Positions 4,992 through 14,117 of a DNA stretch of 39,624 nucleotides are shown piece after piece; the first letter of the stretch is position 1; each line of letters begins with the position of its first letter. The translations under genes were made by a program, and so were the position numbers. Under the pieces are notes generated by a model. It did no database searches. It was not told the origin of the DNA and saw only the letters and a program-made list of their open reading frames with translations. The DNA is from a virus. The DNA lies in the UHGV virus genome UHGV-0068444, one strand, 5' to 3'.

Positions 4992-5366
4992 TCACTGAGC
5001 CGCTTTAAGCTTTCCGTCCACCGCGCCGGTGATGCCGAAGAGTTGCCCCTGATCCTCCTGGAGGATGGTGAGCTTCCCGCCTTTGTTGACCCACATTGGT
5101 GTTTCGGTGGTGTCTTCTTCAGAGACTTTGCCGCGCGGCGTTGGTGTGCTGTATTTCAGCTTGTGCTTGATCTTGACGCGTTTCTCTTCGACAGAGTTAC
5201 CCATGCGCTCAAAATCAAAGGTGAGAACTACCTGGCCTTTGTTACCGTTGTTCAGAACGCCGAGCGCAGTGGTATTAAGCGCTCCTGCTATTTTGTTCAT
5301 GAACACTCCGGCATCCAGTTCGCTCAGAAAGTCGGGTACTACGGTCGTGCGGTCATTACTCATGGT
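4992..5366 (-). CDS. Hypothetical phage early protein (possibly YfdP-like)
   Basis: Start MSNDRTTVVPDFL (ORF extends to 5450); first gene of the leftward early operon. Confidence 0.45.
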   Translation of the reverse strand, partial: TMSNDRTTVVPDFLSELDAGVFMNKIAGALNTTALGVLNNGNKGQVVLTFDFERMGNSVEEKRVKIKHKLKYSTPTPRGKVSEEDTTETPMWVNKGGKLTILQEDQGQLFGITGAVDGKLKAAQ

Positions 5367-6420
5367 TTTACCCTCGTTAAGGCGGCTGCCACCGCCGTGT
5401 TTTCTCCATACACAACAGAGAAGGGCACCTGCAATTGTTGGCGACTGCAATCGCTATCCTCTTGCCCGGGTGGATTGGGTTATGAGCCCGTCACACGGTG
5501 ATACCCTTTTCTGTTGCGTAAAAAGGGCGGTACCGAGGTAGAACATTATCTTCGTCCCCCTTGCATAAGGTTGAAGACCCTGGTACCGCCAAGACTACAC
5601 ACAGCAATACTGGAACTACGGTTATCACGGTCCTAAGCGTGATTTGGTTGTGGTGGCCGGTACTACGATATTCCGGCATGGGTTGATTATCAGTGACGCA
5701 CCCTTTCGGGACACTACCTCACGGTTTAGCGCATCAGCCTGCGCATTCACCACAACGAAGAGAGCACTGCCGGTGTTCGAATCGAACGAACCTTTTCCCT
5801 GCCCAACCCTCCCAACTGAATGGGACTGTCTGGAATCGAACCAGCACTTATGCCTTGCTCGTCAATGCTCTCGTCGTTGTGCCCTGAAAAAGGCTGGCGG
5901 TGACCGGACAAGTGGGAAAACACCGGGCCGCCAGAACAGGGAAGTACTTGTTATTGCTTTGGCCTGCTTTTAACCACATCAGGCGCGGTGGTAAGCCATT
6001 TGCGAATCATCCGGTTATTCATATGCCACCGGCGGCTACTTCGTGGGCGTCCTGCCTGTTCGCTGTTGATGAGTTGAATATACTTGTGAGTAATTTTTGT
6101 GTAAATACCTTTTGGTATATTTTTATTTACTTTTATAGCAACTAATTGCTTTTAATTGGATTTTAATTAAGCAGGTGATGGGTGTTATGCTCAAAAAAAC
6201 ACCAGGTGGCTTGGTATAGAACGTGATGAACTGGAAGAAGACCGTGCGGCATTCATCGCTGGTGAAATTGGCGGTGCAGTTTTCGAGTTGATAATCAACG
6301 GTGTGGTGATAAGTCGAGATGCGATTGTACATAGCTTGGAGACTAAGCGTCGCGCGGTTGGAAATGTGATTCACAAAGGAGTGTTGCGGGATGCTGCTAT
6401 GGTGAGAAAATAATATTTAA

Positions 6421-6452
6421 CCCGGCGCTTGCGCCGGGTTAAATGTTATTTT
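6421..6452. terminator. GC-rich hairpin terminator downstream of the repressor gene, possibly bidirectional
   Basis: cccggcg-cttg-cgccggg (7-bp GC stem) flanked by A-rich sequence on one side and T-rich on the other. Confidence 0.6.
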
Positions 6453-6492: not shown

Positions 6493-7203
6493 TTACAATT
6501 TGTTGTAAGCTATTGATTCGTGTAGTAATGCTTTACCCATAATGTACAATTGATCCTGGTTTTCTTCTGTTATGTACCAGTCTTTGTACACCGGGTTATC
6601 GGATAAAACTGCAAGTTGCAAGCCCTGCATCTGCAAGCGCTTCACATGGAAGTGCTGTCCGAATACAAACGCATAAACACCATCAACCTTGAAGTTTCTT
6701 ACCGAAACATCAAAAAACAACCTGTCTCCAGACTGTATAGTTGGACACATGCTGTCGCCATCGACAGTCATCACTTTTACGTCTTCCTGAGAACGATTTC
6801 CGAAAAGTGAACGAGCGTGCTCGGTGGTGAATTCAATGGCGTGTAGAACCTCAACAAATTCAGAGAGCATAAAACATCCAGGACCAGCACTCACAGTAAG
6901 GTCGAGAACTTCTACACGATAATTGTCGGCTTTGTGAGTGGGTACATCAACATCCATTTTTGAAGTTGGACTAAGACCATCCATCCATCCCCGGCTGATT
7001 TTCAAAGCATCCTCGATCTGCCGAGCAGCCTGCTCCCCAATATTCCGCTTATTAGGTTTACCAGCAGGGTAAAGCATCCGAGAAACAACAGTCGGATCAA
7101 GTCCTGCCTTTTCAGCAAACTCTCTTTGGGTCTTAAAGCGAGTTACTAACTCCTGAAGTTTGAGGCGTCGTAACTCGAAGATCTTAGGCGTTTCCGTTTT
7201 CAT
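6493..7203 (-). CDS. CI-type prophage repressor (N-terminal HTH, C-terminal S24 LexA-like autopeptidase)
   Basis: 236 aa; HTH-like N-terminus; C-terminal GDSMCPTI (Ser) and HVKRL (Lys) motifs of S24 peptidases; divergent from the cro-like gene. Confidence 0.85.
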   Translation of the reverse strand: MKTETPKIFELRRLKLQELVTRFKTQREFAEKAGLDPTVVSRMLYPAGKPNKRNIGEQAARQIEDALKISRGWMDGLSPTSKMDVDVPTHKADNYRVEVLDLTVSAGPGCFMLSEFVEVLHAIEFTTEHARSLFGNRSQEDVKVMTVDGDSMCPTIQSGDRLFFDVSVRNFKVDGVYAFVFGQHFHVKRLQMQGLQLAVLSDNPVYKDWYITEENQDQLYIMGKALLHESIAYNKL

Positions 7204-7250
7204 AATTTCATCTTACTTAAATCTACCTTGAGGTAAATGACTTGTGGGTA

Positions 7251-11727: not shown

Positions 11728-12414
11728 ATGAGCCAGTTAATCGTGAATGGTGTAGTAACAATGTCCAGCCGTGATATTGCGGATCTGGTTCAGAGTAAAC
11801 ACAGTGACGTGAAACGCTCGGCTGAGCGTCTTGTTGCTGCGGGAATTTTAACCGCGCCATTGGCGCAGTTCGATTTTGAGCATAACGGTAATGTGTACCA
11901 GGAGTATCGTTTTAACAAACGCGACTCTCTGGTGATTGTTGCCAGACTGTCACCTGAATTTACCGCCGCGGTCGTCGATCGCTGGCAGGAACTGGAAGAA
12001 GGGCAGAGTGTCAGTGTTCCCCGCTCATTACCGGAAGCGCTTCGCCTGGCTGCTGATTTAGCCGAGCAGAAAGAGCAACTGACGATCCAACTGGCAGCCG
12101 CGGCGCCAAAAGTGGAGTTTGTTGATCGTTATTGCTCAGCAAAAGGCTCCATGTCATTCCGGCAGGTAGCCAAATTGCTTAACGCAAAAGAAACTGAGTT
12201 TCGTCTGTTCCTTATTGAACGCAATATCCTGTATCGCCTCGGCGGCACACTTACCCCCATGGCGCAGCACATTTCCGCGGGAAGATTTGAAGTTAAGACG
12301 GGAACATCGAGCACATCCAATCACGCATTCAGCCAGACGCGTTTCACTGCCAAGGGAGTACGCTGGATTGGTGGTTTGTGGGCTGAACATATTGCAGGGG
12401 GGCAAGCGGCGTGA
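11728..12414 (+). CDS. Rha-family regulator with C-terminal KilA-C/antirepressor-like domain
   Basis: Start MSQLIVNG after GGAG RBS (ORF extends to 11689); N-terminal Rha-like region, C-terminal antirepressor-like region. Confidence 0.6.
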   Translation: MSQLIVNGVVTMSSRDIADLVQSKHSDVKRSAERLVAAGILTAPLAQFDFEHNGNVYQEYRFNKRDSLVIVARLSPEFTAAVVDRWQELEEGQSVSVPRSLPEALRLAADLAEQKEQLTIQLAAAAPKVEFVDRYCSAKGSMSFRQVAKLLNAKETEFRLFLIERNILYRLGGTLTPMAQHISAGRFEVKTGTSSTSNHAFSQTRFTAKGVRWIGGLWAEHIAGGQAA

Positions 12415-13406
12415 GGGCTTTGTTAACTCCTGAAGTAGCCCATCGCATGGGGATTGTGTTGTTTCGTCCCGGCGCGGAACTGATGCACCTCTTCATGCGC
12501 GGTCGCGTCCTTCTCGAACCTGAACCAGAAGAAATGGCGTCATTCAGTACAGGAGCTGTTCCCGCCGCCATTCAGCCGCTGGCTGATGATCCGGTAATGC
12601 GGCAGGTCTTCGGGAATGAGCGGGTTATTCAGCGTGCCGGTGGGCTTCCTTCCCTTGAGCAATGGTTGAGTACCCGGTTTGATTGCCAGTGGCCACATTC
12701 ATCGTGGCACGACAAGAACTTCACAACAATGCGGCACCCACCAGGAAGCATTCGCCTGTGCTGGCATTGCGATCACACTTTGTCCGGGCAGCATACTGAA
12801 CAGCTTGCAGTTATAGCTGCCGGAAACCTGGTATCCTGGATTCTGGAAGTCATTCGGCGTGATTCTGGTTTTCCCGAGTCGCATATCCTGACGCTTCCGG
12901 AACTGTGCTGGTGGATGGTCAGAAACGACCTGGCTGATGTTATTCCGGAAAGCGTTGCGCACAGGGGGTTGCGCCTTCCGGATGAGAAGATCCGCTCTGT
13001 CATGAGGGAAAGCGACATAGTGCCTTCCCCGTCTGCAACCAGCCTCGTGCAGAAGAAAGCGAAGAAGATCCTCACGCTCTCTGTTGATCCGGAGTCTCCT
13101 GAATCTTTCATGCTCAGGCCAAAACGCCGCCGCTGGGTAAATGAGACATACACCCGCTGGGTTAAAACACAACCCTGTGAGTGTTGCCGACGGCCAGCAG
13201 ATGATCCGCACCATATCGTAGGGCACGGTTTGGGTGGTACAGCAACAAAAGCCCATGACCTCTTCGTGATCCCTCTGTGCAGAGAGTGCCACGACGAGTT
13301 ACACGCCGATGTACCGGCATTCGAGCAGAAGCATGGTACGCAGCTTGAGCTGCTACTGCGTTTTATGGATCGGGCGCTGGCGATCGGCGTAATTGCGAAA
13401 GCTTAA
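12411..13406 (+). CDS. DUF968-family phage protein (YdfU-like) with Cys/His-rich C-terminus
   Basis: 331 aa; GTG start overlapping the upstream stop; C-terminal CECC...HHIVGHG...CRECHDELH cluster; lies directly upstream of the Q-like gene as ydfU does in Qin. Confidence 0.5.
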   Translation: MRALLTPEVAHRMGIVLFRPGAELMHLFMRGRVLLEPEPEEMASFSTGAVPAAIQPLADDPVMRQVFGNERVIQRAGGLPSLEQWLSTRFDCQWPHSSWHDKNFTTMRHPPGSIRLCWHCDHTLSGQHTEQLAVIAAGNLVSWILEVIRRDSGFPESHILTLPELCWWMVRNDLADVIPESVAHRGLRLPDEKIRSVMRESDIVPSPSATSLVQKKAKKILTLSVDPESPESFMLRPKRRRWVNETYTRWVKTQPCECCRRPADDPHHIVGHGLGGTATKAHDLFVIPLCRECHDELHADVPAFEQKHGTQLELLLRFMDRALAIGVIAKA

Positions 13407-13427
13407 GTGTATGGAGCGCAAAGAAGC

Positions 13428-14117
13428 ATGAATCAACAAGACCTGAATTTTGTAAGAATAGAATTGCGCCGCGCGCTACCTGACCTCTCTGGGGGAACAA
13501 AAGGGCAGCTTGAGGCTTTCAGTGAACACCCACCAGCAGACAAAAATGCCACCCCGCGCCGTGGAATTCATCTCGTCGAACTCGAAGGAGAGAAGGGGCC
13601 TCGCTTTGTTAACTCGCTTTCCGCGCCATTGTATGTATTGGAAACACGCAGCCGCTGCAGGCCAATGCCGCCGATAAAAGATGCGGAATTTGAGTCCGCG
13701 CCGTGGCGTAGGGCAGTGTCCGCGCTTAGTGGATACCAGCAGGCCTGGTTGCGGTACTGCTACGGTTTTGACCTTAGCTATAAGCACCAGGTGATGATGT
13801 GTGAATACGTCTGGAAAACTTATCAGAAATGTCTGGGTGATAATTCCCTTCAGGAGCGCGTAGTAAAGAAACTGATTGGCCTGGTATGGCTGGCAGGGCA
13901 GGAAATTGCCGCAACCAGAAATAATGAAACCTATAAAGACTATGCTGGTGCAGCGTTGGCCCGCATGGTTAGCGTTGATCGTTCGACATGGTTGCGTGTC
14001 TATTCAGGGCACTGGGCTGGGTTAAAGGCCGCTTTTACCCAGCTTGATGAATCTGCGTTGGCAATGGCTCTTGAATACTATGAGGAAGAAGAAGCCCTCA
14101 AAGTGGCAGAAATGTAA
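13428..14117 (+). CDS. Late-gene antitermination protein, Q-like
   Basis: Start MNQQDLNF (alternative GTG at 13407); position between nin-like genes and a tR'-type terminator; family assignment by context and recollection. Confidence 0.55.
   Translation: MNQQDLNFVRIELRRALPDLSGGTKGQLEAFSEHPPADKNATPRRGIHLVELEGEKGPRFVNSLSAPLYVLETRSRCRPMPPIKDAEFESAPWRRAVSALSGYQQAWLRYCYGFDLSYKHQVMMCEYVWKTYQKCLGDNSLQERVVKKLIGLVWLAGQEIAATRNNETYKDYAGAALARMVSVDRSTWLRVYSGHWAGLKAAFTQLDESALAMALEYYEEEEALKVAEM

Follow-up and report, generated by a model that had tools for sequence, protein, structure and literature searches.

Prophage early-operon leaders that combine a DicF-type small RNA (sRNA) with RNase III sites have been a known kind of element since 1990, and DicF itself regulates ftsZ, xylR and pykA. 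In the Escherichia coli K-12 prophage Qin, DicF belongs to the P22 immC-like dicBF operon. There the 5' end of a 190-nt DicF precursor is an RNase III product, and the 53-nt form arises through RNase E (PMC10448788); read-through dicBF transcripts additionally acquire a 72-nt 3' end, downstream of DicF, by RNase III cleavage (PMC5069750). A second described system is putL of phage HK022, an N-independent element of ~70 nt that begins at the start of the PL transcript (PMC9378689). Here we compare both with positions 5364-6070 of the virus genome UHGV-0068444, a stretch that lies between a PL-like promoter and a yfdP-like gene. The whole 39.6-kb DNA (hereafter the window) is a lambdoid prophage according to its open reading frame (ORF) list and profile matches. 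It is likely, in our assessment, that 5364-6070 is the untranslated leader of the leftward operon, comprising a chain of structured RNA modules that are shuffled as cassettes among prophages and would be processed as in dicBF.

The probable leader and its modules

Modules D, tL1, B, A1 and A2 (Table 1) are each conserved and oriented with transcription, and each shows compensatory changes except for most of D. Relatives were fetched via the YfdP protein, giving 64 loci from many Enterobacterales genera (these and other loci are cited below by L number), and the region was searched by megablast against phages and 5,426 complete E. coli genomes, with module borders taken from local BLAST against annotated relatives. 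The megablast matches are discrete pieces, never the whole region, and across the 64 loci these pieces recur upstream of yfdP in varying combinations. At least 120 contigs of IMG/VR share in this recurrence (every pattern-scan count given here is a minimum), which is accompanied by compensatory base-pair changes and places the region beyond chance. Modules were also found in ST64B, mEp460, Stx2 phages and others, and Salmonella phage ST64B contains the whole arrangement within its 815-nt gap between sb37 and sb38. No known RNA family accounts for them: Rfam 15 at gathering thresholds gave zero matches across the whole window, and a scan of the window plus 29 related loci at gathering and permissive thresholds returned nothing above threshold except controls, unrelated C4 and IsrK RNAs, and one transfer RNA (tRNA).

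The initial annotation had described 5451-6440 as free of convincing ORFs and not AT-rich. The former stands for 5364-6070, where the ORF list holds only short frames overlapping in several phases, and fails at the right end, where a phrog_3975 gene lies. The latter is borne out by a GC content of 0.51-0.55 in 5364-6070, equal to that of the flanking genes, though 6001-6300 falls to 0.41. Two of its candidate explanations have gained ground. The Rfam scan, folding and covariation across related prophages that it proposed gave no family at threshold and compensatory pairs in B, A2 and the D hairpin, in line with a structured non-coding RNA, and a long leader of the leftward operon is likewise supported.

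Table 1. Features of the leader, its flanks and the early region of the window
Feature	Position	Strand	Basis or description
Integrase gene	664-1869	minus	
yfdP-like gene, first leftward	4992-5363	minus	phrog_204, E = 2.5e-40; ORF list
Ribosome-binding region	5361-5408	minus	Conserved UGGAGAAA box, GC hairpin 5381-5396, Shine-Dalgarno GAGGG 5371-5375, ATG 5363-5361
Module A2, second long stem (18 bp)	5409-5519	minus	Three-way junction, conserved loop GGCUCAUAACCCAAUCC, variable hairpin
Module A1, small RNA	5520-5608	minus	5' single-stranded AUUGCUGUGUGUAGUCUU, then terminator UUGGCGGUACCAG...GGUACCGCC, then CUUUUU
Spacer	5611-5747	minus	Four local hairpins; starts GUGGUGAAUGCG
Module B	5748-5882	minus	RNAalifold, covariance model, strand asymmetry
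Module C	5876-5993	minus	Contains tL1
tL1 intrinsic terminator	5887-5934	minus	In module C; CUGGCGGCCCGG...CCGGUCACCGCCAG, then CCUUUUU
Module D, ~68 nt	6003-6070	minus	5' end of predicted leftward transcript; conservation, covariance model R1
PL-like sigma-70 promoter	6077-6105	minus	-35 TTTACA, 17 nt, -10 TATATT; promoter scan, 10/12 matches
Upstream ORF MLKKTPGGLV*, 10 codons	6187-6219	plus	Direct reading
Small protein gene, 65 codons	6216-6413	plus	phrog_3975, E = 5e-33
Bidirectional intrinsic terminator	6415-6444	both	Terminator scan: 13-bp stem, 7 GC pairs
LexA/cI-type repressor gene	6493-7203	minus	
cro-like gene	from ~7304		
Q-like antiterminator gene	13407-14117		

The TTTACA/TATATT pair is the best promoter match of the region. 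An 11-nt operator half-site, ACTTGTGAGTA, lies at 6082-6092 and is repeated beside the -35 of PR at 7240-7250; its presence at both PL and PR is the pattern expected of OL and OR. Thirty relatives possess unrelated promoters and operators in the same geometry, with a TTGAC-type -35 and a -10 that end a few bases before module D. From the promoter match and this constant spacing to D, the leftward transcript most likely starts near the predicted position 6070, ~700 nt before the first start codon, with the untranslated leader extending to 5364. That start codon is the ATG of the yfdP-like gene at 5363, where 5366 had been given before; yfdQ- and yfdR-like genes come next in the operon.

A third candidate of the initial annotation was decayed cargo, i.e. 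protein genes at the position of lambda N and rex that had been broken by frameshifts. Relatives do contain genes here: an intact 121-aa ClpX-zinc-finger gene, missing from the window, lies between modules D and C in L001, L002 and mEp460, and another relative has a RelA/SpoT-domain gene in the slot. The ClpX-zinc-finger gene is the only gene-level difference, however, and is cleanly absent, 464 nt being replaced by 8 nt. Moreover, the modules that were kept are ORF-free in all relatives, more than 60 of which resemble the window in this respect, and alignment to related prophages, the check suggested for a pseudogene, revealed no intact ORFs colinear with them. RefSeq annotates no features in the stretch, not even a pseudogene. 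Substitutions in the stems are compensatory, and indels are not multiples of three. Decay of protein genes is thus largely refuted, and we regard it as extremely improbable.

The accessory genes themselves vary. The ClpX C4-type zinc finger protein (121 aa, phrog_20296) is encoded by the first gene after D in L001 (3076-3441), L002 (2847-3212) and L074 (2620-2988), and in several relatives this gene occupies the place of lambda N. L007 (E. coli O157:H16, CP062876) carries the RelA/SpoT-domain gene at 1227-2342 and shares with the window its PL promoter and its small plus-strand gene. The presence of the RelA/SpoT-domain gene suggests a hotspot of accessory or defence cargo between PL and yfdP.

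Module B and the long stems

Module B comprises a 20-bp stem, P1, which caps into a four-way junction with two T-arm mimics, P2 and P4, and a variable hairpin, P3. P2 and P4 have G-C-closed stems and UUCRAUU loops that correspond to the tRNA T-arm consensus, with its 7-nt loop UUCRAUY, and both are kept in 65 distinct copies; the junction strands GACGAGCAAGG and AUGGGCA are invariant. RNAalifold predicted 36 pairs from 13 copies aligned with MAFFT, 12 of them compensatory. When 91 copies (65 distinct) were aligned to the model, 97.4% of cells were paired and 16 of the 34 pairs showed compensatory changes, values that none of 500 shuffles reached, and slid controls were ~40% paired. This larger alignment is fitted to the model; the independent 13-copy alignment gave the same structure. 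Within P1, 98.7% of cells across the 20 pairs are paired, and P3 varies in length and sequence yet remains paired. The RNA strand of B is the minus strand, as judged from its abundant G-U pairs, which would turn into A-C mismatches if the plus strand were the RNA (at pair 19:132, 42 of 65 copies have U-G), and from model scores of 158.6 bits on the minus strand versus 29.9 bits on the plus strand. B is present in 78 of the 5,426 E. coli genomes, single-copy and unannotated, and its pattern occurs in at least 120 IMG/VR contigs. It adjoins at least one of D, tL1, A1, A2 or yfdP in 69 of 78 viral contexts, where, as in the window, P1 precedes the sRNA.

These data bear on whether the inverted repeats of P1 and A2 and the T-arm palindromes could be DNA-level elements, serving as sites of recombination or attachment or forming a small mobile repeat. 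Such a role would suit the mosaic distribution of the modules, the general use of T-arm sequences as integrase targets, and the occurrence of B in an unrelated podovirus (SPN1S/SPN9TCW) beside a tRNA gene, a genuine tRNA-Arg directly downstream of B in SPN9TCW. Against this, the frequent G-U pairs fit one strand only, the strand asymmetry in model score is accompanied by an orientation that always follows leftward transcription, each of the 78 E. coli carriers has one copy per genome, and P3 changes while staying paired. We consider a DNA-level role very improbable. A comparison of P1 with integron attC sites and ERIC/MITE repeats ended likewise, with mismatched core motifs and one copy per genome.

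The two perfect T-arm consensus hairpins also raise the question of whether B is what is left of a decaying phage tRNA cluster, lacking any function of its own. Real tRNA genes do occupy the equivalent place elsewhere, namely tRNA-Ile in L061 and L063 and tRNA-Arg in SPN9TCW, L076 and L129. Yet B possesses no acceptor or anticodon arm and no complete cloverleaf, ARAGORN finds no tRNA gene anywhere in the window, and the Rfam tRNA model finds none there at E up to 10. The 65 distinct copies instead share a four-way junction foreign to tRNA, with invariant strands and 97% pairing, the opposite of decay. A tRNA remnant is, in our view, very improbable. Overall, the pseudogene, DNA-repeat and tRNA-remnant readings are contradicted by covariation, strand asymmetry, copy number or conservation. 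The initial annotation had noted T-arm-like motifs here, without a full cloverleaf, which is correct; both motifs exist as T-loop hairpins of the single element B, and both read on the minus strand rather than one on each.

B is not tied to tRNA genes, as a tRNA lies at or near it in only 3 of 60 viral loci scanned. In Phytobacter ursingii the leader contains a tRNA-Ile (L061 1186-1264, L063 2722-2800) whose anticodon, AAT, is unusual; it directly follows a P1-type stem and precedes the A1 sRNA. A hammerhead-like ribozyme was also considered for B; UGACGAG and GAAA boxes are present, but the stem II/III junctions and the A15.1-U16.1 pair misfit, and no Rfam ribozyme matches. Among tRNA-like RNAs, which include the bacterial Y RNA YrlA, B is set apart by two T-arms in one four-way junction, a 20-bp closing stem, the lack of an acceptor end and the lack of an Rfam match, although its two hairpins fit the T-arm consensus. 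Conserved GG motifs in its junction strands could play the role of a D-loop.

The arms of P1 recur well beyond B. Weaker matches to the B model (25-37 bits) in many loci consist of the P1 arms CACAAC..AAGAGCAYUG and CAGUGCUCUU..GUUGUGG around quite different inserts, and one such P1-type stem is located in Qin, ~125 nt upstream of dicF (L073 2673-2760; model R2, 23.5 bits, E = 1e-5). Counting 190 nt back from the 3' end of DicF leads into the 3' arm of this stem. Since the 5' end of the 190-nt precursor falls there, we infer by analogy that P1 is an RNase III site. A near-uninterrupted double-stranded RNA of ~20 bp, as in dicBF and the lambda N leader, is provided by both P1 (20 pairs) and A2 (18 pairs). 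A2 folds at -47.6 kcal/mol (z = -4.2), and RNAalifold on its copies in 23 loci gave 35 pairs, 11 of them compensatory. In Qin a long-range stem between DicF and dicB, the site of the 72-nt RNase III end, occupies the same place as A2.

The leftward operon of the window and Qin dicBF resemble each other as repressor-controlled early operons, in which a stem of ~20 bp with P1-type arms lies upstream of an sRNA ending in a UUGGCGGUA...GCCGCCCUUUUU terminator, and a second long-range stem separates that sRNA from the ribosome-binding site of the next gene. They differ in several respects: the single-stranded 5' stretch of the sRNA is different, no T-loop junction caps the P1-type stem of Qin, the domain that follows the sRNA (A2 here) is unrelated in sequence, module D is missing from Qin, and three small genes precede the stem in Qin.

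The A1 small RNA, module D and possible read-through

A1 combines features of two host and prophage sRNAs. Its AUUGCUGUGUGUAGUCUU stretch is identical at 18 of 18 positions to nt 60-77 of E. coli RprA and stands directly before the terminator, as in RprA. The base of that terminator, UUGGCGGUACCAG...GGUACCGCCCUUUUU, nearly matches DicF, and an alignment of 30 loci supports the A1 stems by compensatory changes. The DicF model (RF00039) scores 16.6 bits on A1 (5525-5603, minus strand), below its gathering score of 48, a low value attributable to the longer A1 hairpin; the best relative, L035, reaches 28.4 and the Qin dicF control 76.7. A1 shares with DicF its terminator base, its overall shape and its position: both follow an RNase III-type stem in an early prophage operon under repressor control. 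It departs from DicF in that its hairpin is longer, with a conserved interior of its own, and in its 5' single-stranded stretch, which is AUUGCUGUGUGUAGUC rather than the UUUCUGGUGACG of DicF, and its score is under threshold.

The likeness to RprA is confined to its 3' part. The RprA model (RF00034, gathering score 70 bits) has no match in the window at E up to 10, and the 5' half of RprA, which pairs with the rpoS leader, is absent from the window and from all 141 viral copies of the 18-mer. In L003 and L012-L014 the terminator is also RprA-like, and the RprA model scores 41.2 bits in L003 and L012. Unlike RprA, a core-genome sRNA with its own promoter, A1 would come from a phage operon. At least 14 different terminator beginnings come after the 18-mer in the 141 viral copies, and at least 120 IMG/VR contigs contain it. 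A fixed single-stranded 18-mer ahead of freely varying terminators is what one would expect if an sRNA acts by base pairing and selection maintains its pairing region. The short RprA form reportedly regulates ricI (Papenfort et al. 2015). RNase E cuts RprA into this type of shorter 3' form (PMC6202311). No description of prophage copies of the RprA 18-nt stretch was found in the literature searched, where a preprint on Pas sRNAs concerns late-region sRNAs and not this locus.

The spacer between A1 and B starts with a motif, GUGGUGAAUGCG, that also follows the equivalent stems in ST64B and DicF in Qin, and its relatives are limited to one genome locus (L008) and 16 IMG/VR contigs. Sub-threshold matches to STnc100 (RF02076; 34-36 bits against a threshold of 47) lie beside the DicF/A1 position in Qin (L073 2933-3142), mEp460 (L074 2352-2554) and ST64B (L075 2592-2710). 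They have in common the start GUGGUGAAUGCGG, which also follows module B in the window. STnc100 itself was set aside, as the model has no match in the window.

Transcription of the leader would meet at least two terminators ahead of yfdP. The stem changes of tL1 are compensated in L003, L013, L014, L026 and L064, and it folds at -21 kcal/mol (z = -2.9); the second terminator, which ends A1, precedes yfdP by ~160 nt in nearly all loci. To express its leftward operon this phage must consequently read through at least these two, which makes expression conditional. Module D is the candidate for such control. Over 30 prophages from many genera carry it at 83-97% identity, with unrelated DNA just upstream. 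Covariance model R1 gives D 104.5 bits in the window and detects one D per locus in 34 loci, ST64B and mEp460, always in the sense of leftward transcription; it finds none in Qin and none elsewhere in the 39.6-kb window. The D hairpin CCGGU..ACCGG has compensatory changes at three pairs, and the remainder barely varies. Genes after D in other loci are diverse, mutually unrelated and of no known function, so that no dedicated partner protein accompanies D.

Like HK022 and HK639 put, D is an element of ~70 nt at the PL start of a lambdoid phage that has no N, with terminators downstream. RNAs of the HK022 put type let RNA polymerase pass terminators by contacting the zinc-binding domain of its beta' subunit directly. 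It is possible, by analogy, that D is a put-like read-through element. D was rejected as an actual put homologue, however, and inspection revealed no NANNAT or -10-like pause element in it. Although a put-like pseudoknot can be drawn from GCG/CGC and C(A)GGC/GCCG, the few natural variants disrupt and preserve it equally often, and we do not claim it. The alternative is that D is a 5' stabilizer or translation element for the gene after PL, or a site for a phage or host protein. In many loci an ORF begins 10-30 nt after D, which favors this alternative, as does the lack of put-like sequence, of a second copy and of a pause element; the downstream genes are mutually unrelated, though, some loci (the window included) have none, and conserved terminators lie downstream in nearly all loci. 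We give this alternative a substantial chance, if somewhat less than an even one.

Taken together with the Qin precedent, these features suggest a scheme for the leader. The yfdP-yfdQ-yfdR...int operon would be transcribed from the repressor-controlled PL, and after induction transcripts would either continue through or end at one of two terminators, tL1 and that of A1. As in dicBF, RNase III would cleave both long stems (~20 bp), namely B's P1 and A2, and RNase E would trim the 5' end of A1. Three products would be released: a ~90-nt Hfq-type sRNA that has the 18-mer of the RprA 3' domain and acts on mRNAs of the host, a compact RNA whose two T-loops resemble tRNA elbows, and a yfdP mRNA starting at a defined 5' end. 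More speculatively, D, made first and invariant across immunity types in N-less phages, might help RNA polymerase pass tL1 and the A1 terminator, as putL does in HK022. These functions, namely sRNA processing, read-through control and a put-like D, are ones we infer for the modules.

Several observations weigh against this account of the leader. The transcription start is a prediction, and processing by RNase III as well as RNase E is carried over from Qin. Within D, CCGGU..ACCGG is the sole covarying helix, fold stability does not exceed that of shuffled sequence (z = +0.7), model R1 finds no second copy downstream of PR in the window that would correspond to putR, and neither blastn nor R1 detects similarity to HK022 or HK639 put (HK639 with filters off). 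The spacer fold has z = 0 and no structural support. The arms of A2 and P1 are faintly alike, at a weak 19 bits in L056. Lastly, the window has no site complementary to the A1 18-mer; the targets of A1 are then probably host mRNAs.

Flanking genes and wider significance

Beyond the leader, the position lambda uses for rexAB and N was a reasonable analogy: a small accessory gene lies between the cI-like gene and PL, and the window has no N-like gene, despite its Q-like and CII-like genes. It also carries replication genes, and an HNH endonuclease gene (331 aa, phrog_96, 12411-13406) lies directly upstream of the Q-like antiterminator gene. The product of the small phrog_3975 gene is colinear with an annotated 68-aa E. 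coli protein, WP_000438990 (aligned to L007 3162-3368). The start position of the gene (6216-6218) is ATA, where the E. coli homologue has ATG, and the stop codon of the upstream ORF, TAG, overlaps it (ATAG); a comparable upstream ORF precedes the homologue in L007. The ATA could reflect loss of the start codon, or re-initiation by translational coupling to the upstream ORF. A tiny ORF (ATG CTG CTA TGG TGA) with an AAGGAG ribosome-binding site, once read as a leader or attenuator, is an out-of-frame segment inside the 3' end of the phrog_3975 gene. The hairpin reported beside it, near 6421-6438, is genuine and belongs to a strong bidirectional terminator, with an inverted repeat (6405-6428/6431-6454) that is 96% complementary; this terminator serves both the cI-like repressor gene and the phrog_3975 gene. 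Another terminator-like sequence is the GC hairpin read on the plus strand (5381-5404, GGCGGCTGCCACCGCC then GTGTTTTCTC), which could stop antisense transcription arriving from within yfdP. In the rightward operon of relatives, IsrK and C4 antisense RNAs score above the Rfam threshold adjoining antirepressor genes (L005 4931-5119 in Stx2a_1447, L075 5132-5320 in ST64B); neither has a match in the window itself.

Neither Rfam 15 nor the literature searched contains D, the double T-loop cap, A2 or the RprA-identical 18-mer; that literature does not cover older work on put-like RNAs and dicF-like prophage sequences, so an earlier description of some modules is possible. A bolder proposal joins three claims: B is a phage RNA with two tRNA elbows that binds or decoys a factor recognizing tRNA shape, D represents a second class of promoter-proximal antiterminator RNAs that need no phage protein and are unrelated to put, and A1 takes over part of the host RprA regulon on induction. 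We hold this combination to be rather unlikely as a whole. If it were true, the ligand of B would be, for instance, an enzyme of processing or modification, or a defence nuclease that targets tRNA.

A stretch left blank by annotation pipelines thus resolves into distinct RNA elements, which occur in hundreds of enterobacterial prophages; among them, D, B and A2 are three covariation-supported motifs not in Rfam 15. Carriers include ST64B of Salmonella Typhimurium, prophages of E. coli Nissle 1917 and some Stx2 phages, and the story of DicF and RNase III is tied to a much wider family of prophage leaders. Moreover, the abundance of phage twins of the RprA 3' domain suggests either mimicry of a host regulator of stress, biofilm and conjugation, or a phage origin of part of RprA.

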